Shown: positions 2,357 to 30,728, counted from the stretch's first letter. The stretch is DNA of 32,000 nucleotides from an uncultured Planctomycetia bacterium (GCA_964536865.1 CAZHYN010000010.1:22358-54357), one strand, 5' to 3'. The notes: generated by a model not told the origin, from the sequence alone. Made by a program: numbers and translations.

Positions 2357-3608
2357 TTTTTTTTCCTATATTTTTATTATCCTGATAGTGAGTGTATCCT
2401 TTATCTTTTTTTCTTTTGGATTTTTATCTTTAGGGAACCTATTATGGATTTTGACAGTAGTTGTAATAGTAGAGTTTTTCTTTGCCAAAGCCAAAAAAGA
2501 AATTATTAAAAGATATATTCCTCCTATGGAGGAGGTAGAGGAGAAGATAAATTTATTAGAAGAGGAATTGAAAGAGAAGAATGAATTATTTTTAATCTTA
2601 CCTAGGAGAGCGAGAAAAATTCTTTCTCTTTCCAAGGTTATAGATAAATTTGTATCTTATATAGATAAAGAAAAAGTATACAATTTTCTTGGAGAGAAAC
2701 TGGTAGATTTTTTCCCCCAAGCAGACAATATTTTGATATTTCACTTTGATAGAGAGGATAATTTCTTGGAGCTCACCTATTCTTTCAAGAAACATGATGT
2801 GATCATAAGAGAGAAGAGAGGAGACATTATGGATTTCTGGGTGTTAAAACATAATCAGTCTCTTATTGTAGATGACCTTTCTCAAGATTTTCGTTTTGAT
2901 TGTTCTCAGAGCATAGCTTTCCAAGAGAGAAATATTCACTCTTTTATATCCAGTCCCCTTTCTTTAGGAGAATATATCTTAGGGATAGTGAGAATAGAAA
3001 GCAGGAAGAAGAATGCTTTCTCTATGGATGAACTCCGCCTCCTGCGAATATTTACTGATGTAGGAGCAGCGGTTTTAGAAAGAGCGATTTTGTTTCAGAA
3101 AACCAAAATCTTAGCAATGAATGATGCACTTACTGGGATACTCTTGAGAGAGCCCTTTTTAGAGAGATTAAAAGAAGAATTAATGAGGGCAAGAATTACT
3201 GAGAGTAAATTAGCCTTAGGATTGTTAGATGTTGATGATTTTAAGAAGATAAATGATACTTATGGGCATAGTGTAGGAGATTTAGTTTTGAAAAAGTTAG
3301 CTAAGATTTTAGAGGAAGAGGTGGGTGATTCTGGTAATGCTGTGGCTCGTTTTGGAGGCGAAGAATTTATTTTCTTTCTCGTATACACTAGCCGGGACGA
3401 AGCAAAGAGGTTCGCTAAAGGAATTAAAGAAAGATTATCCTCTACCCGTTTAAGATTTAGAAGGAAGAGTATTGGTTTTTCCATATCTTTAGGAGTGGCG
3501 GTCTTTCCTGAAGATGCTCGGGATTTCCTGTCTCTTATAGAGGTAGCTGATTCCTTACTTTATAGAGCAAAGAGAGAGGGCAAAAACAGAGTATGCTTTA
3601 CCTATTAA
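2301..3608 (+). CDS. membrane-anchored GAF-GGDEF diguanylate cyclase
   Basis: Two hydrophobic N-terminal helices, a central GAF-like region and a C-terminal GGDEF domain (LDVDDFKKINDTYGH .. RFGGEEF). No RxxD I-site upstream of GGEEF. The first ATG overlaps the upstream gene by 56 nt; in-frame TTG 2349 is an alternative start. Confidence 0.85.
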   Translation: MICRGLYFLTLLQKSPLFNFFSYIFIILIVSVSFIFFSFGFLSLGNLLWILTVVVIVEFFFAKAKKEIIKRYIPPMEEVEEKINLLEEELKEKNELFLILPRRARKILSLSKVIDKFVSYIDKEKVYNFLGEKLVDFFPQADNILIFHFDREDNFLELTYSFKKHDVIIREKRGDIMDFWVLKHNQSLIVDDLSQDFRFDCSQSIAFQERNIHSFISSPLSLGEYILGIVRIESRKKNAFSMDELRLLRIFTDVGAAVLERAILFQKTKILAMNDALTGILLREPFLERLKEELMRARITESKLALGLLDVDDFKKINDTYGHSVGDLVLKKLAKILEEEVGDSGNAVARFGGEEFIFFLVYTSRDEAKRFAKGIKERLSSTRLRFRRKSIGFSISLGVAVFPEDARDFLSLIEVADSLLYRAKREGKNRVCFTY

Positions 3609-4558
3609 TAGTAATCTTTCTGCTTTTGGGAATAATCTCTTTAAAAATTCGCAGTATCTCTTCATTAAGAAAGTACTACAAAAAAAAGTTAGCTTCTTTG
3701 AAGGAGAGAGCAACTAATTTGGAGGAAACAGTAGATGCGTTTCGTAGACAATTTCGAAAAATAGAAGAGGCGGTTTCAGAGACCTTCTTTATTTATGAAT
3801 TGGCAGGTAAACTTTCTTCTCTTTTAGATAGAGAGAAAGTTGTTTCTACTTTTGAAGAAGAATTAAACTTCCTTTCCTCTATAGATGAGATAGTTCTTTC
3901 TACTCGGCCAAAGGACAGTTATCTCATTTTTAGGTTAGCTACCCAACCCCCTAAATTTTTAAATATAAAAACGAATTATCCTCAGATAAAAGAGAATTTG
4001 AAAGCTATCGTAAAGATGGTTAACCTTTGTTTAGAACGAATCTCTCTATACGAAAAGCTTCATAATCTATCTATACATGATACCCTTACAAATATTTATA
4101 ATCGTCGTTATTTCTCCTCTAGATTCGATGAGGAGTTTGAGAGAGCAAAAAAATACAAACTGACCTTTTCTCTTCTAATGATAGATATTGACCATTTCAA
4201 AAAAATAAATGATAATTATGGCCACCTGGTAGGTGATGTAGTTCTTAAGGAAACTGTAAAACTTATAAAGGAGAGCATAAGAGAGGTTGATTTCCTTGCT
4301 CGCTATGGAGGAGAAGAGTTTGTGGTTATTCTTCCTCAAACTGATAGAGAAAGAGCACTTCTTGTAGGAGAGAGAATTAGAAAGAGTATAGCTTCCGCAT
4401 CGATAAAAGCTTTTGACGAAGTGTTAAATGTTACAGTAAGCATTGGCGTGGCTAATTATCCCGTGAATTCAGTTTACCCCAATCTTCTCACTGAGGTAGC
4501 AGATAAAGCTTTATATAAAGCCAAACAAAAGGGGAGAAACAGAGTAGAGTATTTCTGA
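3593..4558 (+). CDS. GGDEF diguanylate cyclase with N-terminal TM helix
   Basis: N-terminal TM helix (LYLLIVIFLLLGIISL) and a coiled region, then a GGDEF domain (IDIDHFKKINDNYGH .. RYGGEEF) with an RxxD I-site (REVD) five residues upstream. The start overlaps the previous GGDEF gene by 16 nt. Confidence 0.88.
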   Translation: MLYLLIVIFLLLGIISLKIRSISSLRKYYKKKLASLKERATNLEETVDAFRRQFRKIEEAVSETFFIYELAGKLSSLLDREKVVSTFEEELNFLSSIDEIVLSTRPKDSYLIFRLATQPPKFLNIKTNYPQIKENLKAIVKMVNLCLERISLYEKLHNLSIHDTLTNIYNRRYFSSRFDEEFERAKKYKLTFSLLMIDIDHFKKINDNYGHLVGDVVLKETVKLIKESIREVDFLARYGGEEFVVILPQTDRERALLVGERIRKSIASASIKAFDEVLNVTVSIGVANYPVNSVYPNLLTEVADKALYKAKQKGRNRVEYF

Positions 4559-8335: not shown

Positions 8336-8376
8336 CCATCCTTTACTTTTGAGTAGATATTCTACTGACTTAAATA

Positions 8377-10893
8377 ATGGATAAAATTTTGTATCTTGTA
8401 GATGGTACTTCTATATGCTATCGCTCTTTTTTTGCTATAAGACTTTCTACATCTAAAGGAGTTCCTACAGGAGCAATTTATGGATTTGTTAATACCTTAA
8501 AAAAAATTATTAAAAAATATCAACCTCACTATTTGGCTGTTTGCTTTGATGTTTCTCGCAAGACTTTTCGTCAAGAGATGTTTAGAGATTATAAAATCCA
8601 AAGACCGCCTCCTCCCAGCCCTCTTAAGAAGCAGATTCCTGTGATTAAGGAGTTAACTAAAGCTTTAGGTGTAGAAATTATGGAGAAGGAAGGTTGGGAG
8701 GCAGATGATCTTATAGCTTCTCTGGCAAGGAAAGCGAAAAAGGGAAATTTTAAAGTAGTAGTTATAAGTTCAGATAAAGATGTTTTTCAACTTATTGAAG
8801 ATAAGAAAATATGTGTTTACGACCCTGTGAAAGATATTTTCTATGATGAGGAGGTTTTCTTGAGAGAATTTGGTTTCCATCCTTCCCAGATGGTGGATTA
8901 TCTCTCTCTGGTAGGAGATCCTACTGATAATGTTCCTGGAGCTAAAGGTATAGGAAAAGTAGGTGCTACCAAGTTAATAAGGAAGTTTAAGTCTATAGAG
9001 AACCTTTTTGATAACTTAGATAAAGTTTCCCCTTCAGTAAGGGAGATTTTAGTTTCCAATAAAGAAAATATTTTTCTCAGTAAGGATTTAGTAAAATTAG
9101 CTTACATTGACTTAGATTTTTCTTGGGATGACTTAGTAGTAAAGGAACCCGATTATTCCCAAGTTTATAAGTTCTTTAGAGAGTTAGAATTTAAATCTCT
9201 TCTCAAAGAGATACCGCCCCCTTCTTTGAACATTAAAGTAGAGGTAACCAAAGAGTTTCCTTCTCAACTTATAGAGAAAATTAAAAGCGAGCAAGAGTTA
9301 ATCTTCTATCCCTTTCAAGATAAGATATATATTACCTTCAAAAATAATTCTTTCGTTTATGAGTCTTCTATAGAGAAGGTAAGAGAGCTCCTTCAGGATT
9401 CTAATGTAAGAAAAGTATCTTATGATTTTAAGAATATTCTTCATGGATTAGAGAGAAAGGTTAGGTTAGAAGGTATTTGGTTTGATACTAAAATTGCTGC
9501 CTATACTCTAAATCCTACTCTGGGAGATTTTTCTCTTAAGAATCTGATAGCTCATTTCTTAAATGAGTTTACTCAAGATTTCTCCCCTTTCGTAGCCTGT
9601 TACTTCATACGCAAATTATACAAAACTCTCTATAATCAAATAAAAGTTCAATCCTTAGATAGATTATTCTTTGATGTAGAGATGCCTTTAATAGAAGTTC
9701 TCTGGGATATGGAAGCTTGGGGGATTAAGGTAGATGAAAAATTTCTTAGGGATTTTTCTAGAGAGGTAAAGGATAAAATAACTAATTTAAAAGAAGATAT
9801 TTATAAAGCTGCTGGGGAAAAGTTTAATATTAATTCTCCTCAACAGTTAAGTAGAATTCTTTTTCAGAAGCTAAAGCTTCCTTCTTCAAAGCGGACTAAA
9901 ACAGGTTTTTCTACTAATGAAGAAGTTCTAACAAAGCTTGCTCAAGAATATCCTATAGCAAAACTTCTCTTAGAGTATCGACAACTGAATAAGTTAAGTT
10001 CCACTTACTTGGAACCTTTTTTGAAGGAAGTAGAGTTAAAAAGTGGTAGAGTATTTGCTAAGTTTCATCAGACCACAACAGCTACAGGAAGATTAAGTTC
10101 GTCTTCTCCTAATATCCAGAATCTTCCCATAAAAAGTGAAATTTCTAAAGGCTTTAGAAGAGCAATCATTTCTTCTTTTGATGAAGGGTTAGTCCTTTGT
10201 TGCGATTACTCTCAGATCGAACTAAGAATCTTAGCTCATTTTTCTGAGGATGAAAAATTAATAAGAGCCTTTAAAGAAAATTTAGATATTCACAAACATA
10301 CCGCTTCCCTTCTTTTCGGGATTCCTCCTCACCAGGTGAGTTGGCACCAGAGAGAATTGGCTAAGAGAGTAAACTTTGGAATAATCTATGGGATGAGTTC
10401 CTTTGGATTAGCTCAGGAATTGAATATCTCAGTAGAGCAAGCTTTTTCTTTTATAGAAAGTTATTTCCTCCGTTATCCTAAAGTTAAAGAGTATATAGAG
10501 AGAGTTTATCGAGAAGCAAAAAAGAAGGGGTTTGTAGAGACAATATTAGGGAGGAGGCGTCCTTTACCTCTAGATTCTTCACATCAGGAAGTAAAGGAAT
10601 TTGCTAGAAGGGTAGCTATAAACGCTCCTATCCAGGGATCTGCTGCTGATATTATTAAGATGGCAATGATAGAAATTTATAGAGAATTTAAGAAAGAGAA
10701 GCTAAGCTCTAAGATGATAATTCAGATTCACGATGAGCTTGTATTTGATGTTGAGAAGAGTGAGCTTCAGAAAGTTGTAGAGATTTCTAAAGAAAAAATG
10801 GAAAAAATTGTAGAGTTAAAAGTGCCTCTTAAAGTAAATGTAAAAGTAGGAAGAAACTGGTTAGATACTCGGCAGGTAGATGAAGTTTTCTAA
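8377..10893 (+). CDS. polA: DNA polymerase I
   Basis: 5' nuclease domain (GWEADDLIASL, GIGKVGATKL) and polymerase motifs A (DYSQIELRILAH), B (RRVAINAPIQGSAADI) and C (QIHDELVF). At 838 aa it is Taq-like in length, and the central domain lacks an obvious DxE ExoI motif. Confidence 0.95.
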   Translation: MDKILYLVDGTSICYRSFFAIRLSTSKGVPTGAIYGFVNTLKKIIKKYQPHYLAVCFDVSRKTFRQEMFRDYKIQRPPPPSPLKKQIPVIKELTKALGVEIMEKEGWEADDLIASLARKAKKGNFKVVVISSDKDVFQLIEDKKICVYDPVKDIFYDEEVFLREFGFHPSQMVDYLSLVGDPTDNVPGAKGIGKVGATKLIRKFKSIENLFDNLDKVSPSVREILVSNKENIFLSKDLVKLAYIDLDFSWDDLVVKEPDYSQVYKFFRELEFKSLLKEIPPPSLNIKVEVTKEFPSQLIEKIKSEQELIFYPFQDKIYITFKNNSFVYESSIEKVRELLQDSNVRKVSYDFKNILHGLERKVRLEGIWFDTKIAAYTLNPTLGDFSLKNLIAHFLNEFTQDFSPFVACYFIRKLYKTLYNQIKVQSLDRLFFDVEMPLIEVLWDMEAWGIKVDEKFLRDFSREVKDKITNLKEDIYKAAGEKFNINSPQQLSRILFQKLKLPSSKRTKTGFSTNEEVLTKLAQEYPIAKLLLEYRQLNKLSSTYLEPFLKEVELKSGRVFAKFHQTTTATGRLSSSSPNIQNLPIKSEISKGFRRAIISSFDEGLVLCCDYSQIELRILAHFSEDEKLIRAFKENLDIHKHTASLLFGIPPHQVSWHQRELAKRVNFGIIYGMSSFGLAQELNISVEQAFSFIESYFLRYPKVKEYIERVYREAKKKGFVETILGRRRPLPLDSSHQEVKEFARRVAINAPIQGSAADIIKMAMIEIYREFKKEKLSSKMIIQIHDELVFDVEKSELQKVVEISKEKMEKIVELKVPLKVNVKVGRNWLDTRQVDEVF

Positions 10894-12287: not shown

Positions 12288-12877
12288 CCGGACCACTTGG
12301 AGGAGGCAAAACTACTGTATTAAATCTTTTAAAGAAAAAAGGTGCTTCTGTTTATGATGTGGATAAGGTCATTCACTCCTACTATAGGGATAAGAAATCT
12401 TCTGTGTATAGGGAGATTAAAAGGATGTTTCCTCAAGTCATAACTTCTATGGGTAATATTTCACGCAAAAGATTAAGAGAAGTTGTCTTTAACAATAAAA
12501 GAGAACTGAAAAAACTGGAGGGAATAGTTCATCCTGTGATCATAGAAGATTTAAAGAGGTGGGTAAGAGATAGTAAAAACAAAAGGAAGATATATATAGC
12601 AGAAGTTCCTCTACTTTTTGAGAAACGGCTCCATACTCTTTTTAATAAAGTCGTCTTTGTATACGCTCCTAAACGAACTATCTTAAGAAGAGTGAAAGAG
12701 AAGTTTGGTCTTTCTACACGTCAGGCACTTTTGTTTCTTTCTCTTAACCAGAAAGCCAAAGAGAAAATAAAGAGGAGTGATTTTGTAATTAGGAACGCAG
12801 GCTCTTTAGAGGATCTTAAAGCAAAAGTAGATTATTTATGGGAGAATTTACTCTCCCCTGAAAAGAGAGGTGGTTGA
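12269..12877 (+). CDS. coaE: dephospho-CoA kinase
   Basis: P-loop [11 protein letters not shown], about 200 aa, with a CoaE-like layout (VHPVI.., EVPLLFE). Confidence 0.88.
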
Positions 12878-14193
12878 TGCCTTCAAACAGAAAAGAAAAT
12901 AAATCGATATCAAAAAAGGGAGGGGTTATGGGTAGCAGTATGGATATAGGTACGTTAAAAGAGATGAAGATATCTGATCTTAATAAGATAGCTAAGGAGT
13001 TAGAGATCAATGGAATAAGTGGTTTAAAAAAGCAAGACCTTATTTTTAAAATTCTTCAAGCAAAGGCAGAAAAAGAAGGACTGATGTTTGGAGGAGGGGT
13101 TTTGGAAGTTCTTCCTGAAGGATTCGGATTTTTACGTTCACCCAACTATAATTATCTACCTTCTCCCGATGATATTTATGTTTCCCCCTCTCAAATAAGA
13201 AAATTTTCTTTAAGAACGGGAGATACAGTGAGTGGCCAGATAAGACCACCCAAGGAGAATGAGAAGTATTTTGCTCTTCTTAAGGTAGAAGCAGTAAACT
13301 TTGAAGATCCGGAGCAGGCACGTAACCGTGTCCTTTTTGATAATTTAACTCCTATTTATCCCAAAGAAAGGTTTATTTTAGAGACCCATCCTGAAGAACT
13401 ATCCACGAGAATTCTTGATCTTCTCTGCCCCATTGGCAAGGGCCAGCGTGGTTTAATTGTTGCTGCTCCCTACAGTGGTAAGACTGTGCTTTTACAGAAG
13501 ATAGCTAACGCTATAATGACTAATTATCATGAGGTAATTCTTATTGTTCTTCTCATCGATGAAAGACCGGAAGAGGTAACCGAGATGAAGGCTCAAGTTG
13601 TTGGAGAGATAATAAGTTCTACTTTCGATGAACCTGCTCAACGTCATGTACAGGTAGCAGAGATGGTTTTAGAAAAGGCTAAGAGGCTAGTGGAGCACAA
13701 AAAAGATGTAGTAATCCTTCTGGATAGTATTACTCGATTAGCAAGAGCTTACAACCTGGTAGAACCTCACTCTGGGAGGATTCTCTCTGGAGGTATAGAT
13801 TCTAATGCTCTTCATAAACCTAAAAGGTTCTTTGGGACTGCTAGAGCTTTAGAGGAGGGAGGTTCTTTAACTATTATTGCTACTGCTTTAGTAGATACCG
13901 GTTCCAGGATGGATGATGTGATTTTTGAAGAGTTTAAAGGGACAGGAAATATGGAGATAACTTTGGATAGAAATATATTTCAGAGAAGAATATACCCTTC
14001 CATAGATATAAAAAGGTCCAATACACGAAGAGAGGAACTTCTCCTCCATCCCGACGAACTTCAAAGAATATGGATTTTGAGAAAAGCATTGAACGATTTA
14101 AATTCTGTAGAAGCCCTGGAGCTATTGATTGAAAAGCTTTCCAAGACTAAGAATAACGTAGAATTTTTACTCACCCTCAATAAACAAATGTGA
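12877..14193 (+). CDS. rho: transcription termination factor Rho
   Basis: N-terminal Rho_N ([24 protein letters not shown]), an RNA-binding OB fold (GFGFLRS), Walker A APYSGKT and the C-terminal ATPase. Start is ambiguous. ATG 12877 overlaps the coaE stop. ATG 12928 follows GGGAGGGG and gives an N-terminus collinear with E. coli Rho. Confidence 0.93.
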
Positions 14194-14268
14194 TACAATA
14201 TTACCTTAAAATTTTATAGCCTTTTGAGGAAGGTTATGGGTACTTACGGATCAGAAGGGAGGTAGATT

Positions 14269-14472
14269 ATGAAAAAAGGTATCCATCCTAAATATGATTA
14301 TGCTATAATTTCCTGTGCTTGCGGTAATGTGATTCATACCCGTTCCACAAAAAAAACTATCAATGTAGAGATTTGCTCTAAATGTCACCCTTTCTTTACA
14401 GGGAAACAGAAATTTGTTGATTCTGAAGGAAGGGTGGAGAAATTTTTAAGAAAGTATAAGAAAGAGAAGTAA
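14269..14472 (+). CDS. rpmE: 50S ribosomal protein L31, Zn-binding (C+) form, copy 1
   Basis: MKKGIHPKY.., SCACGN and [12 protein letters not shown] motifs. SD GGGAGG upstream. Identical in sequence to 18728-18931. Confidence 0.95.
14269..14472 (+). repeat. left copy of a 204-bp perfect direct repeat (whole rpmE CDS)
   Basis: Base-by-base comparison with 18728-18931 shows 204/204 identity from the ATG to the TAA. The one following base (A) also matches. Flanks on both sides differ. Confidence 0.95.
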
Positions 14473-14552
14473 AATAAAAATGATGTTATCGCAATATAAT
14501 AATGTTATCTTTTTGTAAAATAGATTTGTCGGGGTAGATTAGATAAAATATC

Positions 14553-14578
14553 ACCTCTTTCTTAAAGAAGGAAGAGGT
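14553..14578 (+). other. stem-loop in the ORF-free leader upstream of the ALDH gene
   Basis: ACCTCTTTCTT / AAAG loop / AAGGAAGAGGT: an 11-bp stem with one G.U pair. No U-tract follows. Its 3' arm contains the GAGG that would serve as SD for a 21-codon sORF at 14584-14649. Confidence 0.35.
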
Positions 14579-14766
14579 AGTAAATGGAAGAATCGATTAT
14601 CTCGATAATAAAAGAAGAAAGATATGGGGTGATAAGAGAGATTAACTAAAATCTGAAATGAAATTTCAAACACATTTTAAAGTACACATTCTTAGTAAAA
14701 GGAGATTAAAGAAAGAAGAGTTATCAATTTGACAGGGAAAGGAAGAATCAGTGTAAGAGGAAAAAA

Positions 14767-16317
14767 ATGGAGAAGTTCACTTTATTAGTAGGAGGTAAAG
14801 ATTTAGATACAGGTATATACCACTATTTTCCATTTACAGAGAAGCTCGTCGCCGAGCCTCAGAAGACAGTAAGAATGCTTAAAAAAGTAAAACAAGGTCA
14901 AGTTTCGAGAGAAATACAAAAGTATGTTTATGCTCAATACTGTATTAACACAGAGGATACAAATAGAGCTGCTATAGAGTCAGCCTATAAAGCGCAAAAG
15001 ATCTTTTTTAAATTTTCTCTTTCTAAAAGGCGACAGATTCTTTTAGATATATATAAACTCCTTATTGAAAATAGAAAAAAGTTTATCGAGCTGTTAATTA
15101 TCGAAGGTCACCCCCGAAGATTGGCTGAATGGGAATTTGAAGGCATGCAAATTGGGAGCAGTCCTACTACTATAAATTTTTATTGTCAATTAATCCAGAA
15201 AGAGATAGGAAGGTGTGGAAGAGAAATTTTATATTGGGTTAGGAGACCAGATGGTGTGGTATGCGTAAGTTCCCCTGGCAATGCTTCTGCGAGTAGTTCT
15301 TATAATGCGATCTTAGCCTTTCTTACAGGCAATACTTTAATAATTAAACCTCCCTTAAGGGCTCCTCTTTCTACTCTCTTTTTATGGAAGGAAATTGTTA
15401 ACAAAGCGTTGGTTATTAATAATGCTCCACCAGGAGTCTTAAATATAGTGATAGGTAATTCTCAAAAAATCATGGAAGAATGGCTCGCAAGTCCTTATGT
15501 AAACGATATAGTCTATTTTGGAGAAAGTAGAAAAGGACTTGAAATTGGAACTAGAATCTTTCAGGCAGAGAAGAAGCCTGTTTTAGAGCTTTCTGGAAAT
15601 GATTTTTTTCTTGTATGGAAAGATGCCGAGAAGGAAAAATCTTCGATCTCTCTAACTGATGCTTTCTTAGGTTCCACTCAAATCTGTATGGTTCCAAAGA
15701 TTGCACTAATTCATGAGGAAGTGTACGATGATTTTGTAAAGATTTTTATAGAAAAAGTAAAAAAGTTAAAAATAGGTCCCCCTACAGACCCTGACACTAT
15801 TTTTAGCCCTGTTACAAAGATTCAAGATTTTTTTGAATTTCTAAACGATGCTTTAGCCAAAGGAGGAGAGATTCTTTATGGAGGGGAAAGGGTAGATTAT
15901 TTTGGGAGGCCTGATTCCACTGGAATGTATATACAACCCACATTGTTAAAAATAGAAGATTGTTATCTTAATAGAGGTTTAAGATGTATTGAAGAAGAGA
16001 TTTTTTTTCCTCTTCTTCCTTTAATCAGAGTATCAGGTGGAGATGAGGCTATTTTCGAAAAAATGGTAGAACTAGTAAATTCTCATGGATACGGATTAAG
16101 AGTTTCTTTATGGATTTCTTCTTTTAAGTTTCTACGCAAATTTGCAAAAGAATTATCTAATTGTGGAATGTTGAGGATTAATTCTAGACATGTAGGATTT
16201 TCTTATTATTTATCTACCCATGGGGGAACTAGAAAGACCGGGGGACCCTTTGGCGAAATGAATTATTTTTGGCAGAAGACATCTCATTTGCAAGGAGTAA
16301 GTAGGATGAGATTATAA
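14767..16317 (+). CDS. aldehyde dehydrogenase superfamily protein (divergent)
   Basis: About 516 aa with an ALDH layout. Catalytic Glu context VLELSGND, catalytic Cys context GSTQICMVP, and cofactor-loop FGESRKGLEIG. The usual PWNFP-type segment reads SSPGNASA. Confidence 0.75.
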   Translation: MEKFTLLVGGKDLDTGIYHYFPFTEKLVAEPQKTVRMLKKVKQGQVSREIQKYVYAQYCINTEDTNRAAIESAYKAQKIFFKFSLSKRRQILLDIYKLLIENRKKFIELLIIEGHPRRLAEWEFEGMQIGSSPTTINFYCQLIQKEIGRCGREILYWVRRPDGVVCVSSPGNASASSSYNAILAFLTGNTLIIKPPLRAPLSTLFLWKEIVNKALVINNAPPGVLNIVIGNSQKIMEEWLASPYVNDIVYFGESRKGLEIGTRIFQAEKKPVLELSGNDFFLVWKDAEKEKSSISLTDAFLGSTQICMVPKIALIHEEVYDDFVKIFIEKVKKLKIGPPTDPDTIFSPVTKIQDFFEFLNDALAKGGEILYGGERVDYFGRPDSTGMYIQPTLLKIEDCYLNRGLRCIEEEIFFPLLPLIRVSGGDEAIFEKMVELVNSHGYGLRVSLWISSFKFLRKFAKELSNCGMLRINSRHVGFSYYLSTHGGTRKTGGPFGEMNYFWQKTSHLQGVSRMRL

Positions 16318-16332
16318 AAGAAGGAGGTTTAG

Positions 16333-18363
16333 ATTTACTTTCAATTTCTTCCTCCTCTGTTAAGTAGTTTTATAATTATTTCTACAGGGATTTTCGTCCT
16401 TTTAAGAAATTTCCGAGCAAAACTAAATCGTCTTTTCTTTCTAGAATGCCTTACTCTTTTTGTGTGGCTGATTGGTTTTAGTGCAATGTACGCACTTCGT
16501 GATAAAAAGTTTGCTTTGATAGCTGCAAGAATTGGATTCATGGGAGTAATTTTCATTCCCATTTTTATTTATCATTTCTATATAATATTTTTAAAGCTAA
16601 CTCGGAAGATTGCACTTCCTTTAATTTACATTATTGGATTCCTCTTTTTACTCTTAACCCCTACCCCTTATATCTACCAGAAAATAGATACCTACTTTTG
16701 GGGTAATTATCCTCGTGGTGGATTAATTTACCCTTTATATGTTCTTTTCTTTATAGGAGTATTTATAAGGTGCCTCTTTTTACTTTTTAATGCTTTTAGA
16801 AAGGAAAGGTTTCCTACTATTTTTCGTGAGCAGATAAAGTATCTTTTTTTAGCTTTTTTGGTGGCCACATTTGGGATAGTAGATTACGTAGCTAAGTTTG
16901 GAATAGCTTTGTATCCTTTTGGTTATCTTGCTGCGTTAGGTTGGATATTTATAATAGCCTATACCATTGTCAAGCATCATCTCCTTGAAATCCATATTGC
17001 TTTTACTCGTGTAGCTATCTTTACACTTGTCTACTTTTTCATTGTCTTTATTCCTTTTTTCATTGCTCCTAGATTTATTTCTATTTCTTTATGGTGGTTT
17101 CCTATTCTACTAATGGGGATTTTAGCAACTCTGGCTCCCTTTATTTATAATTATCTTCGTAAACAAGCTGAGAATATCCTGCTAGCTGAGCAAAAAAGAT
17201 ATCAGAGAGCATTAAGAGAGTTTGCTCAGACTCTAATCTTTATTAAGGATACAGAGAGTTTAGCTAAAGAGGTTACCTCAAAGATAATTGCCTATCTTAA
17301 TTTAGATTTTTGTGCGTTCTATTTAAAACAGGATAAGGACTTTTATCTAATTCATTTTAGTTCAAAAAGGATGAACAAATTTCCTTTTCAGATTAAGAAT
17401 AATTGTAAATTAGTGCATCTTCTTAATAGATCAACCTCTCCTATTCTGGGAGAAAGCTTACCTTCCTTAGATGACATAAATGTTGGCTTAGCCTTTCCTC
17501 TATTTCTGAATAAGGAGTTGTTTGGTTTTATTGTGATGAGTCAGAAAACGAAAGGTACTTTTACGGATACGGATATAGATGTATTCACTACTATTTCTAC
17601 TCAAGTATCTTTAGCTTTATCTCAGATATATTATTTTGAAGAATATCAAAAATTGATGGATGAAAGATATAGATTGATAGTTGAGAGAGAAAGAATGGAA
17701 AGCGCCTTTCAGATTTCAGAAGCATATAGACATGAATTGGGAAATATTATAAATATTATTTCCTTAAGCCTAGCTAACTTGGAGTATCAAGAAAATTTTT
17801 ATCCTCAAAAAGAAGATATAGAAAAAGTTGCTCACTCTATTAAAAAGAATGTAGAAAGAGCAAGGACTATATTCGATGCTATAGCTAGGTATAATAAAAA
17901 TGCGCGGTCTAAATTTAAATTGATGGATTTAAGTAAAGTTGTAAAAGATAGGGTAAATCAATTTAGTAAAAATATCTCTAAGAGTAACATAACTATAAAA
18001 AGTGAGATCGAAGAAGAGTTAAGAGTTTGGGCTAACGATAATTTACCAGACGCTATAGGATATTTAATAGAAGGTTCAATAAAGGCAATAGAATACCATA
18101 CGCCCCAAAATAAATCTCTCTATATAAGCTTAAAGAGAGCAGATAATAAAGCTATTCTTAGAATATCAGATACAGGAGGAGATATAACTGAAAATAACCT
18201 CTATAGGGATATGGGGATTGAAAGGGGGAAAGAAGGAGGTATACTTTACTTTATTGCAAGGAGGATTATTTTTGATCACAAAGGTAGTTTTAATTTTCAA
18301 TCCTTTAACCAAGGAGAAGGTACAACTTTTAAGATAGAATTACCTATAAATGAAAGTACATAG
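16333..18363 (+). CDS. sensor histidine kinase with N-terminal multi-TM sensor, GAF-like domain and HisKA/HATPase core
   Basis: At least 6-7 hydrophobic helices, a GAF-like middle, H-box YRHELGNIIN, N-box region, G1 ISDTGGDI and G2 GEGTTFKIELP. The track ORF starts at GTG 16462, but the frame is open from 16333 and encodes a further TM helix (FLPPLLSSFIIISTGIFVLLRNF). ATT 16333 lies 5 nt after AAGGAGG. See findings. Confidence 0.85.
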   Translation: MYFQFLPPLLSSFIIISTGIFVLLRNFRAKLNRLFFLECLTLFVWLIGFSAMYALRDKKFALIAARIGFMGVIFIPIFIYHFYIIFLKLTRKIALPLIYIIGFLFLLLTPTPYIYQKIDTYFWGNYPRGGLIYPLYVLFFIGVFIRCLFLLFNAFRKERFPTIFREQIKYLFLAFLVATFGIVDYVAKFGIALYPFGYLAALGWIFIIAYTIVKHHLLEIHIAFTRVAIFTLVYFFIVFIPFFIAPRFISISLWWFPILLMGILATLAPFIYNYLRKQAENILLAEQKRYQRALREFAQTLIFIKDTESLAKEVTSKIIAYLNLDFCAFYLKQDKDFYLIHFSSKRMNKFPFQIKNNCKLVHLLNRSTSPILGESLPSLDDINVGLAFPLFLNKELFGFIVMSQKTKGTFTDTDIDVFTTISTQVSLALSQIYYFEEYQKLMDERYRLIVERERMESAFQISEAYRHELGNIINIISLSLANLEYQENFYPQKEDIEKVAHSIKKNVERARTIFDAIARYNKNARSKFKLMDLSKVVKDRVNQFSKNISKSNITIKSEIEEELRVWANDNLPDAIGYLIEGSIKAIEYHTPQNKSLYISLKRADNKAILRISDTGGDITENNLYRDMGIERGKEGGILYFIARRIIFDHKGSFNFQSFNQGEGTTFKIELPINEST

Positions 18364-18715
18364 TAATAAACTCCTATTAGTTATAGAAGATGAGGAGGAA
18401 GCCAGAGACCTAATGGTGGGAATTATTAAAAGAAAAGGGGTTAGTGTATTAGAAACTGGTAAAGGTAAGGAGGCTATAGAACTCTACAGAAACTTTAAAC
18501 CTGATGGAGTAATTTTAGATCTTCATCTTCCTGATATAAAAGGAGAAGAGGTATTGAAAGAGATCAAAAATATCAACCCTGAAGCTAAAATCTATCTTAT
18601 CACAGGGACTGCCGACAGAATAGAAATCGAAGAAGCAACAAAATTAGGAGCAATTGGATATATTTCAAAACCTATTATGGTAGAGGAGCTCTTAAAGATA
18701 GTAGATTTTTTCTAA
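18350..18715 (+). CDS. single-domain response regulator (CheY-like receiver, no output domain)
   Basis: LLVIEDEEE acidic pocket, phospho-acceptor context VILDLHLPD, conserved T (ITGT) and K (SKP). 121 aa. The start overlaps the kinase stop by 14 nt. Confidence 0.9.
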   Translation: MKVHSNKLLLVIEDEEEARDLMVGIIKRKGVSVLETGKGKEAIELYRNFKPDGVILDLHLPDIKGEEVLKEIKNINPEAKIYLITGTADRIEIEEATKLGAIGYISKPIMVEELLKIVDFF

Positions 18716-18727
18716 GAAGGAGGGGAG

Positions 18728-18931
18728 ATGAAAAAAGGTATCCATCCTAAATATGATTATGCTATAATTTCCTGTGCTTGCGGTAATGTGATTCATACCC
18801 GTTCCACAAAAAAAACTATCAATGTAGAGATTTGCTCTAAATGTCACCCTTTCTTTACAGGGAAACAGAAATTTGTTGATTCTGAAGGAAGGGTGGAGAA
18901 ATTTTTAAGAAAGTATAAGAAAGAGAAGTAA
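18728..18931 (+). CDS. rpmE: 50S ribosomal protein L31, Zn-binding (C+) form, copy 2
   Basis: Identical to copy 1. SD GAAGGAGG upstream. Its stop TAA is followed directly by the prfA ATG. Confidence 0.95.
18728..18931 (+). repeat. right copy of the 204-bp perfect direct repeat (whole rpmE CDS)
   Basis: 204/204 identity with 14269-14472. Confidence 0.95.
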
Positions 18932-20002
18932 ATGATTGATTTCAAAAAACTAAAGGAAGAATATAAGCAAATTTCCAAGAGGCTTTCTCTACCAGACATC
19001 TATAAAAATAAAGAAGAGTATCAGAAACTTAGCAAAAGATTCTCCTTTCTGGAGAAAGTAGTTTCTCTCATAAACGAAAGAGATGCGCTTCTCAAGGAGA
19101 AACAGGACCTAGAGAAGTTGCTTTCTTTGCAAGATGAAGATGAACAGATGAAGGTTTTGGCAGCACAAGAACTTTCTGAGGTTGAAGAAAAGATAAAGAA
19201 GGTAGAGGAGAAGATAGAGGAAAAGTTCTTTGAAGATACAGAAGAAGAAAGGGATATTATTGTAGAGATTAGAGCTGCTGCAGGGGGGGAGGAAGCAGCT
19301 CTGTTTGCTGGCGACCTTTTTAGAATGTACTCTCGCTATGTTGAAAAGAAAGGGTGGAAATTGGAAATCTTAAGTTCTCACCCTACTGAACTGGGAGGGT
19401 TTAAGGAGGTGATTTTTTCTGTTAAGGGTAAGAATTGTTTTTCTCATTTTAAATTTGAAAGTGGTGTACATCGTGTCCAGCGTATACCAGTAACTGAATC
19501 AGGAGGAAGAATTCATACCTCCACCGCTACCGTGGCTGTTTTAGTTGAACCTCAAGAGATAGAATTGAAAATAAATCCGGATGAATTAAAAATAGAGACT
19601 TTTAGAGCTTCCGGTCACGGCGGTCAACACGTAAATCGTACCGATTCAGCAGTAAGAATCACTCACTTACCTTCAGGGATTGTGGTAAGCTGTCAGGACG
19701 AGCGTTCCCAGATTAAAAATAGAGAGAAGGCAATGCGGGTTCTTAAGGCAAGATTGTTGGATAAGTTGGAAAGAGAACGCACTTTAAAAGTCACTCATCA
19801 ACGTAAAGTTCAAATTGGTACAGGGGAAAGGAGTGAAAAGATAAGAACTTATAACTTTCCTGAACGCCGGGTCACCGATCACAGGATAAATTTTACTATT
19901 TATCGGCTTAATGAAATTTTGGAAGGTAATTTAGATATTTTAGTTGATCCTCTGAAGAGAGAGGAGAAGAAAAAAATTTATGAAGCTAAGGGATTGGCTT
20001 AA
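18932..20002 (+). CDS. prfA: peptide chain release factor 1
   Basis: GGQHVN motif, RF1-type PVT tripeptide (RIPVTES) and a typical length of 356 aa. Confidence 0.95.
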
Positions 20003-29528: not shown

Positions 29529-30728
29529 ATGAAGTTAAATTTGAAAGAAAAGGCAGTGAGAGTTTTCTCTTCCACAGAATTCCGCATTATTTTTCTAATC
29601 GTAGGATTTCTCACTTTAATAATATTAAGAAGGTCAATGGGTGTTTTTGGATTAGCTCTGGGTTACCTTTACGTGGGGTTTATTTCTTTAGCAGGATTTT
29701 GGTTTGGGATAAAGGGAGGATTGATTTCTGCTACTGTGGCTTCTTTTATATTTCTTTCTGAAGTTAATTTTTTTCATTACGCTGCTTTTAGAGATCTGGT
29801 AATAAGGGGTATGTTTTTAAGATTTCTTATTTACTATTTGGGAGGAATAGGGATGGGTTACCTCTCTAATATAGAAAAAGGGTTAAGAGAACGGCTAAAA
29901 GTTCTAGCTTATTACGATGAACTTACTGGATGTGTGAATTTTAGATGGACGATGACTATTTTAGAGAATGAAATCGCTCGTGCTAATCGTTATTCTAAAA
30001 GTTTAGCTGTAGCAATGGTAGATATTGACCATTTTAAAAAAATAAATGACACTTACGGACACTTAGCGGGTAATGACGTACTAAGATGCTTTGCTCAAAT
30101 TCTTAAAGAGAGTGTACGTAATGTAGATATAGTGGGCAGATACGGAGGAGAAGAGTTTCTTCTTATTTTTCCTGAAGCTACTTCTGAGGATGTTTTAACT
30201 GTATTAAGGAGAATTAGAGATAGGCTATCTCAGACAAGAATCGTTTCTTCTCATTTAAAAGGGGGGATATTTGTTAAATTCAGCGCTGGCGTTGCCTCTT
30301 TTCCTTACAATGGAGAAGATTTAAGTAGTATCCTCTCTTCAGCTGACTCAGCTCTCTATTATGCTAAAAAATCAGGGAGAGATCGTTTCCTGGTAGAAAG
30401 GAGGCGATGGTTGAGATTAAAACCTGCGAAAAAAGTAAAGATAGAGATAAAAGAATCTACAAGTGGTAGAAAGATAGAAGCTAAAGAAGTTTTTAACATC
30501 TCTAGGAGGGGCGTTCTTCTTCTATTCCCCCAGGATATTTCCTCTCAAGAGTTCGTATGTTGCTTCTACTTATCTGAAGGGAAAAATACTCCTGCAGAGT
30601 TTAAGTGTAAGCTTATCCATAAGGATAGATCTAAAGAAGATATTTATCGAGTAGGCGTTTACTTTGTGGATATCCCTAAAGAAGTTCAGGAAGAGATAGA
30701 ATCATTCAAAAATTCCCACCTACCTTAG
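29529..30728 (+). CDS. membrane-bound GGDEF diguanylate cyclase fused to a C-terminal PilZ domain
   Basis: About 4 N-terminal TM helices. GGDEF domain (VDIDHFKKINDTYGH .. RYGGEEF) with an RxxD I-site (RNVD). The C-terminal ~100 aa carry the PilZ signatures RRRWLR (RxxxR) and NISRRG (D/NxSxxG). Confidence 0.85.
   Translation: MKLNLKEKAVRVFSSTEFRIIFLIVGFLTLIILRRSMGVFGLALGYLYVGFISLAGFWFGIKGGLISATVASFIFLSEVNFFHYAAFRDLVIRGMFLRFLIYYLGGIGMGYLSNIEKGLRERLKVLAYYDELTGCVNFRWTMTILENEIARANRYSKSLAVAMVDIDHFKKINDTYGHLAGNDVLRCFAQILKESVRNVDIVGRYGGEEFLLIFPEATSEDVLTVLRRIRDRLSQTRIVSSHLKGGIFVKFSAGVASFPYNGEDLSSILSSADSALYYAKKSGRDRFLVERRRWLRLKPAKKVKIEIKESTSGRKIEAKEVFNISRRGVLLLFPQDISSQEFVCCFYLSEGKNTPAEFKCKLIHKDRSKEDIYRVGVYFVDIPKEVQEEIESFKNSHLP

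Follow-up and report, generated by a model that had tools for sequence, protein, structure and literature searches.

Identical copies of rpmE bound a modular two-component signaling cassette between rho and prfA in Candidatus Omnitrophota

The window, a 32-kb stretch of genomic DNA (32,000 nucleotides) from a member of Candidatus Omnitrophota, contains two copies of rpmE, the gene for ribosomal protein L31, in direct orientation between rho and prfA. A non-coding leader, an aldehyde dehydrogenase (ALDH), a GAF histidine kinase (HK), and a receiver lie between the copies. Pfam searches bore out the gene assignments of a first-pass annotation made from the sequence (rho, rpmE, ALDH, kinase, receiver, prfA, prmC, and murA). 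The features of the locus are as follows:

12874-14193, + strand: rho, the left backbone gene (Pfam Rho_N, Rho_RNA_bind, and ATP-synt_ab); dS against lineage G is 0.59, the level of the backbone
14194-14268, + strand: native rho-rpmE intergenic region with the rpmE Shine-Dalgarno sequence ggaggtagatt, collinear with the cassette-free contig L011
14269-14473, + strand: repeat copy 1, rpmE (L31, Zn-ribbon type; CDS 14269-14472) plus 1 nt, with a native upstream and a cassette downstream flank (Pfam Ribosomal_L31, E 8e-32)
14474-14766, + strand: non-coding leader of cassette B, with a hairpin at about 14552-14580 and a possible 21-aa ORF at 14584-14649
14767-16317, + strand: aldehyde dehydrogenase, the enzyme of variable module B (Pfam Aldedh, E 2e-64); dS against lineage G is 0.015
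16333-17085, + strand: variable N-terminal (transmembrane sensor) part of histidine kinase HKb; dS against G is 0.015 (residues 1-204)
17086-18727, + strand: upstream part of the constant module, comprising the C-terminal part of HKb (GAF and kinase core; to 18363), a receiver-only response regulator (18350-18715), and a 12-nt spacer (Pfam GAF, HATPase_c, and Response_reg)
18728-18932, + strand: repeat copy 2, rpmE (CDS 18728-18931) plus 1 nt, with a cassette upstream and a native downstream flank (TAA directly before the prfA ATG)
18932-20002, + strand: prfA, the right backbone gene (Pfam PCRF and RF-1; dS against G 0.47), followed by prmC (PrmC-like), murA, and the trp operon

A repeat search measured 100% identity over 205 nt (the 204-nt rpmE CDS and one further base) and a start-to-start distance of 4459 nt, in agreement with the earlier report of identity at all 204 positions; the runner-up direct repeats in the region are only 20-37 nt long, with 66-82% identity. 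A perfect repeat of 205 nt cannot be produced by chance. Both pairs of flanks differ, as had been described: the sequence ...cagaagggaggtagatt precedes the ATG of copy 1 and ...taagaaggaggggag that of copy 2, while the TAA is followed by aataaaaatgatg in copy 1 and by ATGattgat, the start of prfA, in copy 2. The homology around the insert is thus directly duplicated, with each rpmE copy keeping one native flank, on the rho side or at prfA. Both copies encode the same 67-aa protein, in which Cys16, Cys18, Cys36, and Cys39 are retained; both are intact and of the Zn-ribbon type, and neither is diverged or devoid of the CxxC cysteines. Pairs of L31 genes are known as rpmE/ykgM, Zur-regulated Zn-binding and Zn-independent paralogs that have diverged, one of them lacking the cysteines (PMC9825181, PMC7363858). 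The locus resembles these in having two L31 genes per genome but differs in that the copies are identical and keep all four cysteines; a Zn-dependent/Zn-independent pair was accordingly ruled out.

The 294-nt leader contains no ORF of at least 25 aa, as the first-pass annotation had implied in calling it ORF-free. Its fold z-score is -2.5 and its identity across three lineages is 98.6-99%; it has no match in Rfam and no homolog at any other locus retrieved for comparison. The listed ORF of HKb (16462-18363) starts with GTG and contains GAF and HATPase_c domains, the latter at residues 542-629. The frame is, however, open and coding-like from 16333 (ATT, 6 nt past a GGAGG Shine-Dalgarno sequence), and the tblastn alignment to the window with HKa, a kinase of the related contig L003, as the query begins at 16348, upstream of the listed start. 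Taken from 16462, HKb has no match to HisKA_7TM, which is found in HKa (E 1e-15) and in HKc, a kinase of contig L007 (E 6e-9); homologs at 41-45% identity carry PF16927. The receiver is separate from the kinase (Response_reg, E 7e-26), and the 12-nt spacer that follows it carries a Shine-Dalgarno sequence ahead of rpmE copy 2.

The cassette had been proposed to be an insertion into a rho-rpmE-prfA-prmC-murA backbone and a search for relatives without it recommended; such relatives were found. In five other Omnitrophota genomes (L013, L014, a complete chromosome, L017, L018, and L019) and in L011, a contig from a sister lineage, the order is coaE-rho-rpmE-prfA-prmC-murA, with rpmE present once and the cassette absent. 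L011 belongs to the same species as L003, with a backbone 99.6% identical. The cassette itself is native rather than foreign DNA, judging from its composition and from its relatives: codon and tetranucleotide usage, which were to be compared with the flanks, match the host and carry no foreign signature, and no plasmid or phage similarity was found. ALDH-7TM kinase-receiver operons without rpmE are common elsewhere in other Omnitrophota genomes, where ALDH homologs at 60-68% identity adjoin 7TM kinases.

The sister lineage reveals the modular structure of which the window locus is a minimal case. In L003 the order is rho-[acyl-reductase-like enzyme-HKa-RR]-rpmE-[ALDH-HKb-RR]-rpmE-prfA, with RR denoting the receiver, and the central ~50 nt of the rho-rpmE intergenic region are replaced by cassette A. 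In this lineage two or three variable modules are present, each followed by a module of 1851 nt that comprises the C-terminal 425 aa of the kinase, the receiver, and rpmE. In L003 this module is a perfect repeat that starts at positions 8357 and 12818, corresponding to about 17086 in the window, and runs from HKa residue 264, just past the 7TM domain (residues 11-232), to 3 nt past the rpmE stop. Each variable module consists of a lipid-type enzyme and a 7TM sensor; the enzymes are acyl-reductase-like, ALDH, or ketoacyl synthase, which are unrelated families, and the modules are able to sit in tandem. The third variable module, a ketoacyl synthase with HKc, is joined to the same constant module in L007. 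The boundary between variable and constant parts falls just beyond the 7TM region (HKa residue 264, HKb residue 209): within L003, the N-terminal parts of HKb and HKa share only 40-55% nucleotide identity, and the receiver is 100% identical among cassettes A, B, and C of lineage G. Backbones that are nearly identical (99.6-100%) differ in what they hold, namely no cassette (L011), a ketoacyl-synthase cassette (L007), an ALDH cassette (L006 and L008), or two cassettes (L003 and L005), with some of these paths being assembler-dependent. The earlier suggestion that rpmE is the only homology available was too narrow; rpmE is the last 205 nt of a constant module of ~1.85 kb made up of the C-terminal part of the kinase, the receiver, the spacer, and rpmE.

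Divergence is distributed very unevenly along the locus. Among the window lineage (W) and lineages G and S, identity of the prfA-murA backbone is 90.5% (W-G), 89.9% (W-S), and 95.5% (G-S), whereas the segment from the leader through ALDH to the N-terminal part of HKb is 98-100% identical in all three pairs. Identity is 98-100% from window position 14253 to about 17085 and 84-96% outside; between W and G it falls from 99-100% to 88-96% at the start of the constant module (~17086). Divergence therefore changes stepwise in two places, at rpmE and where the constant module begins; that module is itself a mosaic among W, G, and S. Between W and G, dS is 0.015 for both ALDH and the N-terminal part of HKb, as against 0.23-0.71 for eight backbone genes; it is 0.21 for the C-terminal part of the kinase and 0.29 for the receiver. 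For rpmE it is 0.08, a low value to which constraint on codon choice under high expression could contribute. Within each contig the two rpmE copies are identical, whereas between lineages they differ at three synonymous positions (C45/A144/G198 in both window copies, T45/G144/A198 in both copies of L003 and of L005); they evolve in concert. These patterns indicate that the ALDH cassette has apparently passed recently between species-level lineages by ordinary homologous recombination, with crossovers in the L31 gene and in the constant half of the kinase. The structure had been proposed to be recombinationally active, and with one of the two steps located in it, rpmE indeed acts as a homology handle.

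We consider it quite probable that the two rpmE genes form a true tandem repeat in the chromosome and bound one unit of a modular array of two-component cassettes, which are gained, lost, and exchanged by homologous recombination. The array would occupy the rho-prfA interval in a small set of lineages within Candidatus Omnitrophota. Every unit combines a variable module (leader, enzyme gene of lipid or aldehyde type, and the kinase's transmembrane sensor portion) with a constant module (the GAF and catalytic part of the kinase, the receiver-only response regulator, and rpmE). Gain, loss, and exchange would proceed by recombination of the RecA type, presumably dependent on RecA itself, with no recombinase encoded by the element, and the crossovers would fall in the constant module and rpmE, which are nearly identical between lineages whose backbones are ~10% apart. 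Since the window lineage has no upstream cassette, the left copy of the constant module would there have shrunk to rpmE with its native promoter-side flank, leaving the 205-nt repeat. The copies could be kept identical by gene conversion, or both could have been templated from one copy at a single-crossover (ends-in) entry; entry may have been by Campbell-type integration of a circle. Copy 1 is of the recipient type and lies beside a leader of the donor type, so that this scheme assumes an extra step, either a crossover within the final 7 nt or a subsequent gene conversion.

The alternative that survives best, although we regard it as improbable, is that an old tandem duplication of [kinase-receiver-rpmE] has been inherited only vertically, with gene conversion alone keeping the copies identical and no transfer between lineages. 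It accommodates an arrangement common to three lineages, copies that are the same within genomes and different between them, and a constant module whose divergence (dS 0.21-0.29) is near that of the backbone. It does not accommodate the contrast between a dS of 0.015 for ALDH and the kinase N-terminal part and one of 0.23-0.71 for the backbone, nor a non-coding leader that is about 99% identical, which purifying selection cannot explain; the mosaic constant module and the differing cassette content of L007, L008, and L011, on backbones 99.6-100% identical, likewise argue against it. To save strictly vertical descent by invoking cross-lineage assembly chimeras is opposed by the lineage-specific G alleles: five G contigs from five samples have the same 14 differences from W in the cassette. 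The cassette alleles are thus lineage-specific and stable, and cross-sample chimerism is therefore excluded.

Somewhat less probable again is that the chromosome reads rho-rpmE-prfA, and that the 4.46-kb segment [rpmE-leader-ALDH-HK-RR] is a separate circle (an episome) or an artifact of loop resolution. In a de Bruijn graph the repeat node has two inputs, two outputs, and a loop, and the short-read unitigs of the same strain (L001, L002, and L177) halt at the repeat: MEGAHIT contigs at k=141 break exactly 141 nt into it, L001 holding the cassette and L177 opening with 140 nt of rpmE followed by prfA. The L001 unitig fits a circle or a tandem arrangement alike, and the sister lineage has a cassette-free path (L011), in which an assembler could in principle have skipped the loop. 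The topology was judged from contigs, not reads; we infer a chromosomal tandem from contig paths and graph logic rather than from spanning reads. Against a circle or an artifact, both junctions of the repeat recur in at least eight independent contigs, with the rpmE-leader and receiver-rpmE-prfA junctions present in L001, L002, L003, L005, L006, L008, L012, and L186, from different samples and assemblers. In L006, L008, and L012 the sequence leaves the cassette, crosses rpmE, and continues into prfA and past it; both junctions are traversed by the window contig, which is probably 359 kb long, and paired reads can reach across a 205-nt repeat. The segment has no replication, partition, or mobilization gene, its composition is host-like, it lacks plasmid or phage similarity, and the identical arrangement is seen in three lineages and many samples. 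The k=141 breakpoints need shared 141-mers over repeat positions 1-141 and 65-205, which is independent support for exact identity. Misassembly, the null hypothesis of the first-pass annotation, is thus unlikely as the source of the duplicated rpmE, in view of the recurrent junctions and these breakpoints. The two-cassette contigs are a different matter, as a perfect repeat of 1851 nt is too long for short-insert libraries: L003 and L005 could reflect an assembler walking the loop in a mixed population, and their 100% repeat identity could be a bubble collapse. Were recombination between the copies to release a transient circle, this would belong to the modular-array reading that we favor and would not be a rival to it.

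A still smaller chance attaches to a site-specific recombinase encoded elsewhere (integron-like, or of the tyrosine or serine type) that would recognize sites at the rpmE stop and close to where sensor and kinase meet. All lineages have the same sharp left boundary directly past the rpmE stop, the layout is array-like with repeated 3' ends, and the search of the host genome spanned 32 kb only. No recombinase was found among the 27 window ORFs by Pfam scan or in the 10-kb flanks of the related contigs; the 32-kb window contains no integrase, transposase, tRNA, or terminal inverted repeat, as had been stated, and no competence genes. There is no inverted-repeat pair at 14473 or 18727, nor are there attC-like or terminal inverted repeats, the best boundary-related pair (I16) being 21 nt long with 81% complementarity. 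The right boundary, moreover, is graded rather than sharp, as is typical of homologous exchange: in L003 the perfect tract is preceded by 133 nt of ~85% identity, and similarity in L007 starts 133 nt further upstream. Least probable of all is that the duplication was selected for L31 function, by dosage or rpmE-prfA translational coupling; every arrangement ends with rpmE abutting prfA (TAAATG or TAAAATG), copy 1 retains its native upstream region, and the two Zn-ribbon genes are both intact, but single-copy rpmE is the rule in relatives, and function leaves the nucleotide-perfect identity and the divergence steps unexplained. Such selection is compatible with homologous exchange of cassettes as a constraint on which junctions survive, not as a substitute for it.

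The first-pass annotation regarded the mechanism as undescribed, which is too strong, as exchange through homologous flanks, duplication of homology by a single crossover, and concerted evolution of repeats are all known. The locus is best read as a variant of known mechanisms rather than a new one; what is unusual is the choice of handle sequences and a sensor domain that is swapped along with the neighboring enzyme gene. Campbell-type single-crossover (ends-in) integration duplicates the homology on both sides of an insert. The locus shares with it the direct repeats flanking the insert, the native upstream flank of copy 1 and native downstream flank of copy 2, and the unoccupied single-copy site in relatives. 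It departs from the pure case in that a double crossover with an array-bearing donor gives the same product, and in that the homology in sister genomes is 1.85 kb rather than just rpmE.

In the minimal mobile elements of Neisseria, closely related strains have different genes enclosed by the same conserved flanks, and homologous recombination takes place in these flanks (PMC3787668, PMC3082526). Variable content between conserved flanks, flank recombination, and the lack of an element-encoded recombinase are common to both systems (PMC3787668, PMC3082526). Here, however, rpmE, one of the two handles, is present twice within the locus, and the second crossover region is part of the kinase gene, so that a domain and the neighboring enzyme gene are swapped together; tandem stacking of units is also possible, and the host belongs to an uncultivated lineage of Omnitrophota. 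Rhs C-terminal displacement arrays, in which a conserved core recombines in a new variable end and its partner gene, are likewise similar in that the core supports recombination and its repeated segments pile up in tandem (PMC2935791). Unlike in Rhs arrays, the variable end here is the N-terminal one, located upstream, and the units, which encode signaling proteins rather than toxin/immunity pairs, are whole and apparently functional, not orphan fragments. An integron-type site-specific array fits poorly, with no recombinase gene in the window or in the flanks of related contigs and no inverted-repeat site at the cassette ends.

Duplicated translation genes such as tufA/tufB and the rRNA operons undergo concerted evolution by gene conversion, and as in these, the rpmE copies are the same within a genome and different between genomes. 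Reversible duplications between repeats depend on RecA, and the direct repeats of the locus would equally be substrates for RecA-mediated loss or amplification (PMC12124856). Unlike in both, a very short (205 nt) ribosomal protein gene brackets accessory genes, and reversibility is suggested by population polymorphism only. The genes of the cassette are co-oriented with the backbone, and no terminator-like site was found after copy 1; transcription therefore probably reads through from the cassette into rpmE copy 2 and prfA, with the rpmE copy directly before prfA keeping the native TAA-ATG junction.

The specificity groups of agr in Staphylococcus combine a hypervariable ligand-related gene and kinase sensor domain with a constant kinase core and regulator. 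In the comCD pherotypes of Streptococcus, a variable ligand/sensor segment is exchanged by recombination (PMC5629823). The Omnitrophota locus is similar in that the variable segment spans the enzyme gene and the membrane sensor while the cytoplasmic part of the kinase and the response regulator are constant, and enzyme and sensor are probably a matched input unit feeding a common receiver. It differs from agr and comCD, which have homologous alleles at one position, in that the enzymes are an ALDH, an acyl-reductase-like SDR, and a ketoacyl synthase, possibly in tandem.

A repeat search of the window identified two 205-nt copies, 100% identical and 4459 nt apart (14269-14473 and 18728-18932), each containing the whole 204-nt rpmE coding sequence plus one base. 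Upstream of copy 1 is the intergenic region on the rho side (...cagaagggaggtagatt), and downstream of it is aataaaaatgatg; copy 2 comes after a receiver gene, from which a spacer of 12 nt (taagaaggaggggag) separates it, and directly adjoins the ATG of prfA, as the first-pass annotation had described. Pfam confirms the following genes in the rho-rpmE-prfA-prmC-murA backbone and in the cassette between the copies:

Rho, a backbone gene
L31 (rpmE), two copies
14767-16317, aldehyde dehydrogenase (ALDH)
16462-18363, GAF/HATPase_c histidine kinase
18350-18715, receiver-only response regulator
RF1, PrmC-like methyltransferase and MurA, backbone genes

Two related contigs, a 33-kb JGI contig (L003/L004) and a SPAdes contig (L005), have the same two-cassette order. 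In their first unit, rho is followed by an NAD_binding_4 acyl-reductase-like enzyme, a 7TM-GAF kinase (HKa), a receiver and rpmE (cassette A); the second unit, after this first rpmE, comprises a leader, the ALDH, its kinase (HKb), a receiver and a further rpmE adjoining prfA (cassette B). The two units of L003 contain a perfect repeat of 1851 nt (8357-10207 and 12818-14668), which begins at HKa residue 264/HKb residue 209, between the HisKA_7TM domain (HKa residues 11-232) and GAF, and ends 3 bases past the rpmE stop; upstream of it, the kinases are just ~40-55% identical in DNA. A third variable module, encoding a beta-ketoacyl synthase and a kinase of 680 aa (HKc, cassette C), joins the same constant module at a nearly identical point in contig L007 (9 mismatches over 1777 nt). 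A unit thus consists of a variable module (leader, lipid/aldehyde-type enzyme and transmembrane sensor) and, after it, a constant module (GAF, kinase core, receiver, Shine-Dalgarno spacer and rpmE). Accordingly, the proposal that rpmE was the only homology does not hold, as this gene is the tail of a larger repeated module.

The window has no upstream cassette, and of the constant module only rpmE, its final 205 nt, occurs twice; the native intergenic region between rho and rpmE is kept at copy 1 and is collinear with contig L011, which has no cassette. In the L003 group (lineage G, below), the repeat extends to the native Shine-Dalgarno sequence (aggaggtagatt), whereas the window spacer before copy 2 is altered (ggaggggag), which is why identity begins exactly at the ATG. 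Cassette A (3.66 kb; acyl-reductase-like enzyme, HKa and receiver) replaces the central ~50 nt of the rho-rpmE intergenic region (L003 6320-6426 vs window 14194-14268). Because ~13 nt past the rho stop and ~14 nt of the Shine-Dalgarno region before rpmE are kept, it entered upstream of rpmE without duplicating that gene, a mode of insertion that differs from that of cassette B. The window kinase ORF is called from GTG 16462; its frame is open and hydrophobic already from 16333, an ATT codon 6 nt past a GGAGG Shine-Dalgarno sequence, and the tblastn alignment with HKa begins at 16348. The ORF is probably longer than called, and the region 16318-16461 suggests either a non-canonical start codon or a sensor N-terminally shorter than HKa (688 aa) and HKc.

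The 3.1-kb prfA-prmC-murA backbone defines three lineages: W (the window and contigs L001, L002 and L177), G (L003 and L005-L011; 99.6-100% identical internally and 90.5% identical to W), and S (L012; 95.5% identical to G and 89.9% to W). From rpmE copy 1 through the leader and ALDH to the N-terminal part of the kinase (14253 to ~17085), sequences are 98-100% identical in all three lineage pairs, as against 88-96% from ~17086 on and 84-95% in the backbone. Synonymous divergence follows the same division:

dS between lineages W and G (Nei-Gojobori estimates)
polA, 0.71
rho, 0.59
glgA, 0.52
prfA, 0.47
prmC, 0.46
trpG, 0.46
murA, 0.34
trpD, 0.34
coaE, 0.23
receiver, 0.29
HKb C-terminal part, 0.21
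rpmE, 0.081
ALDH, 0.015
HKb residues 1-204, 0.015

Selection cannot explain this contrast, because the leader, although non-coding, matches the coding part in conservation. The cassette alleles are lineage-specific and reproducible, with the same 14 differences from W in five G contigs from five samples and 26 differences of its own in S, ruling out cross-sample chimeras. Therefore, the low divergence of variable module B against that of the backbone indicates that this module spread between lineages long after they split. One end of the recombination lies at rpmE and the other at the start of the constant module, which is also the start of the repeat within L003. Repeated homologous exchange would be expected to leave a mosaic constant module, and this is what a comparison of W, G and S shows. 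Within prfA, a 200-nt stretch (19653-19853) is 98% identical between W and G (L003), with neighbors at 84-93%; it is either a small recombination tract or a case of extreme constraint near the conserved RF1 core. Elsewhere in the backbone, identity between W and L003 also fluctuates, from 83 to 98% per 200 nt.

The rpmE copies agree within a genome and differ between lineages: both window copies carry C45/A144/G198 and both copies in L003 and L005 carry T45/G144/A198, A63 is additional in the single-copy G contigs, and the set in S is a distinct one; every difference is synonymous. An ancient duplication had been expected to appear as the same arrangement with diverged copies in relatives; the arrangement does occur in diverged relatives, with copies that have not diverged from each other. 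The leader beside copy 1 is almost identical to that of the donor, yet copy 1 has the resident alleles, so that one of three events is needed: a crossover could have fallen within the last few bases of rpmE, the copies could have been homogenized later by gene conversion, or both could have been templated from the resident one in an ends-in (single-crossover, gap-repair) event.

The nearest Rho-encoding genomes are Candidatus Omnitrophota MAGs; an exact protein look-up of the window Rho itself gave no record, with a different start call the probable cause. The comparison with related genomes suggested earlier recovered the cassette-free order coaE-rho-rpmE-prfA-prmC-murA, with one rpmE and no insert, in five of them (L013, L014, L017, L018 and L019), including a complete 1.82-Mb chromosome (L014). 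The cassette is thus a lineage-specific insertion into a phylum-wide conserved backbone, and rpmE copy number and rho-rpmE-prfA synteny are unreliable single-copy markers in this group. A metagenome scan for L31 gave only distant L31 genes among the matches listed. One of the five, L013 (CAZJOV010000013.1), is titled 'uncultured Planctomycetia bacterium'; its Rho is the closest outside the species group (90% identity) and its synteny across coaE-rho-rpmE-prfA-prmC-murA is that of the Omnitrophota MAGs, and the label is probably wrong.

Independent contigs were gathered by exact look-up of the L31 and ALDH proteins in JGI, ENA and Logan assemblies. The junction of rpmE with the leader is present in the window, L001, L003, L005, L006, L008, L012 and L186, and the receiver-rpmE-prfA junction in L003-L010 and L012. 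Two MEGAHIT contigs (k=141) of the same strain, L001 and L177, are 100% identical to the window; L001 is the cassette with 141 nt of repeat at either end, and L177 starts with 140 nt of rpmE followed by prfA. As the contigs break exactly k nt into the repeat, the rpmE copies have common 141-mers, which confirms their perfect identity independently and rules out bubble collapse as its source. By graph logic, only two topologies are possible, a chromosomal tandem or an empty chromosome with a 4.46-kb circle. Judging from the contigs and the graph, we consider a misassembly or such an episome very improbable: the segment contains no replication or transfer gene (Pfam), is host-like in composition and resembles no plasmid or phage, the window is part of a 0.2-1 Mb contig (probably of 359,446 bp), and read pairs can bridge a 205-nt repeat. 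Identical short core-gene repeats in metagenome-assembled genomes should not be dismissed automatically as misassemblies.

For the two-cassette contigs L003 and L005, the 1851-nt perfect repeat is too long for short inserts, and the contigs with the acyl-reductase cassette (L178-L181) end on entry into the constant module. L003 and L005 may represent a true two-cassette genome or a loop walk through mixed strains with only A or only B, and in L011 the assembler could in principle have skipped the loop. L009 and L010 were dropped as examples of cassette A only, as these contigs begin at or inside the constant module and are uninformative on upstream content. All single adjacencies are real, and the divergence analysis is independent of these paths.

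Neither the 32-kb window nor the flanking sequence of related contigs yielded an integrase, transposase or tRNA, and inverted repeats were not found at the cassette boundaries, in agreement with the first-pass annotation; together with a right cassette boundary that is graded and not sharp, this makes site-specific recombination unlikely. A 21-nt inverted pair with 81% complementarity (17050-17070 and 18721-18741) has one arm close to the point where the kinase passes from variable to constant and the other across the spacer and the first bases of rpmE copy 2; it was not seen to be conserved and is probably due to chance in AT-rich DNA. The simplest account of the sequences is RecA-type homologous recombination, for which we envisage three routes. 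In the first, donor DNA with rpmE, module B, the constant module, rpmE and prfA would enter a cassette-free recipient by double crossover, with rpmE as the left arm and prfA or rpmE as the right. In the second, of Campbell type, a circle of leader, ALDH, HKb, receiver and rpmE would be freed from an array by recombination between constant modules; integration into an empty genome via rpmE alone would give the window state, and integration into a cassette-bearing genome via the 1.85-kb module would give the L003 state with two resident-type constant modules. In the third, rho-rpmE DNA without a cassette would replace an upstream cassette, the right-hand crossover falling in rpmE copy 1. The flanks seen here are predicted by each of the three, and the sequence favors none of them. 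Thus, the initial observation is confirmed and its interpretation partly supported, Campbell-type integration being a viable special case that fits the flanks no better than double crossover or upstream loss.

We tentatively suggest, as a possibility of rather low probability, that the locus is an integrase-free cassette platform from which recombination frees a circle of enzyme, complete sensor kinase, receiver and rpmE that re-enters related genomes. The circle would arise between repeated constant modules or between rpmE copies, and it or equivalent linear DNA would enter even a ~10% diverged genome at a single rpmE or an existing constant module. If so, an ultra-conserved ribosomal protein gene would be a universal docking site, and matched enzyme-plus-sensor inputs would be shuffled across species boundaries onto a common signaling output. 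The locus is a clear case, from nature, of gene flow in which accessory genes pass between species-level lineages without mobile-element machinery; the crossover points are short, very conserved islands, here rpmE, which encodes a ribosomal protein, and the cytoplasmic kinase half.

Comparable behavior is known from the minimal mobile elements of Neisseria, in which conserved flanks likewise mediate exchange of gene content (PMC3787668, PMC3082526), and from the Rhs C-terminal displacement arrays (PMC2935791). The locus also works like Campbell-type duplication-insertion and the concerted evolution of duplicated translation genes. It is neither an integron-like system nor a Zn/non-Zn L31 paralogue pair, the defining features of both having been looked for and not found. 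What distinguishes the locus is an array of tandem, stackable units without a recombinase, whose handles are a kinase core and a ribosomal protein gene and whose cargo, an enzyme-plus-sensor input module, moves across lineages at ~90% nucleotide identity. In the literature we found neither this Omnitrophota locus nor tandem rpmE copies of identical sequence described.

ALDH homologs (60-68% identity) occur widely in Omnitrophota; those whose gene neighborhood was read belong to [receiver]-ALDH-7TM-GAF kinase-[receiver] operons of unrelated loci (beside gatCAB, for instance), and none adjoins rpmE. At other loci, kinase homologs with 41-45% identity are also found downstream of unannotated genes or genes for other enzymes, and no ancient association with rpmE was found among the distant ones. 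The cassette is therefore a native operon type that was relocated. Fitting this origin, the cassette falls inside the spread of the window itself in the compositional comparison proposed earlier, which took in tetranucleotide distance, codon usage and GC3 (rank 10 of 56 chunks); a foreign origin is rejected on these grounds and for want of plasmid or phage similarity.

The enzymes of the three cassettes (ALDH, acyl-reductase-like SDR and ketoacyl synthase) act on acyl/aldehyde substrates and each co-varies with a 7TM sensor, and cassettes A, B and C of lineage G have receivers that are 100% identical. By analogy with the agr specificity modules, we hypothesize that each enzyme is matched to its sensor, the two acting as one input unit on a shared receiver. 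The comCD specificity modules provide a similar analogy (PMC5629823). The pairings suggest the hypothesis that the 7TM kinases sense lipid/aldehyde metabolites, and illustrate a form of two-component evolution in which the membrane sensor is swapped along with its neighboring enzyme gene and transmitter and receiver stay constant. The genes are co-oriented and no terminator-like site was found after rpmE copy 1, making read-through into the cassette, rpmE copy 2 and prfA likely. With an rpmE copy immediately ahead of prfA, the native TAA-ATG junction is kept, which may be the reason why only such junctions are seen.

The 294-nt leader contains no ORF of more than 24 aa on the coding strand, consistent with its earlier description as ORF-free. 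Rfam gave no match on the whole window (gathering thresholds) or on 14100-14900 (E<=1), and folding of the leader exceeds that of shuffled sequence only slightly (z = -2.5); a riboswitch or known leader RNA is rejected for want of evidence. Promoter-like matches are no commoner than in shuffled sequence, and the leader resembles none of the loci compared, so that a remnant of prfA or other local sequence is rejected. Inside it, an 11-bp hairpin in the 14552-14649 region (cacCTCTTTCTTaaaGAAGgAAGAGgt) carries in its 3' arm the Shine-Dalgarno sequence of a possible 21-aa ORF (MEESIISIIKEERYGVIREIN, 14584-14649), whose sole substitution among lineages is a synonymous C>T at 14601 in L012. On this thin evidence, hairpin and ORF could form a translational leader device.

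In contig L186 (JGI 3300028891, Ga0309840_115487), the ALDH-cassette kinase is called as two ORFs of 347 and 275 aa (2131-4001), suggesting a frameshift or stop and possibly a decaying cassette copy in one population. Homologs of the cassette ALDH are fused to PilZ in several Omnitrophota (proteins P0123, P0137, P0144, P0145, P0159 and P0167), and PilZ genes neighbor the ALDH-kinase operon in the related contigs L189 and L190. The window encodes three GGDEF proteins (regions 2301-4558 and 29529-30728), one with GAF and one fused to PilZ, which, with the PilZ fusions, hints at a link between the enzyme-sensor modules and c-di-GMP signaling.
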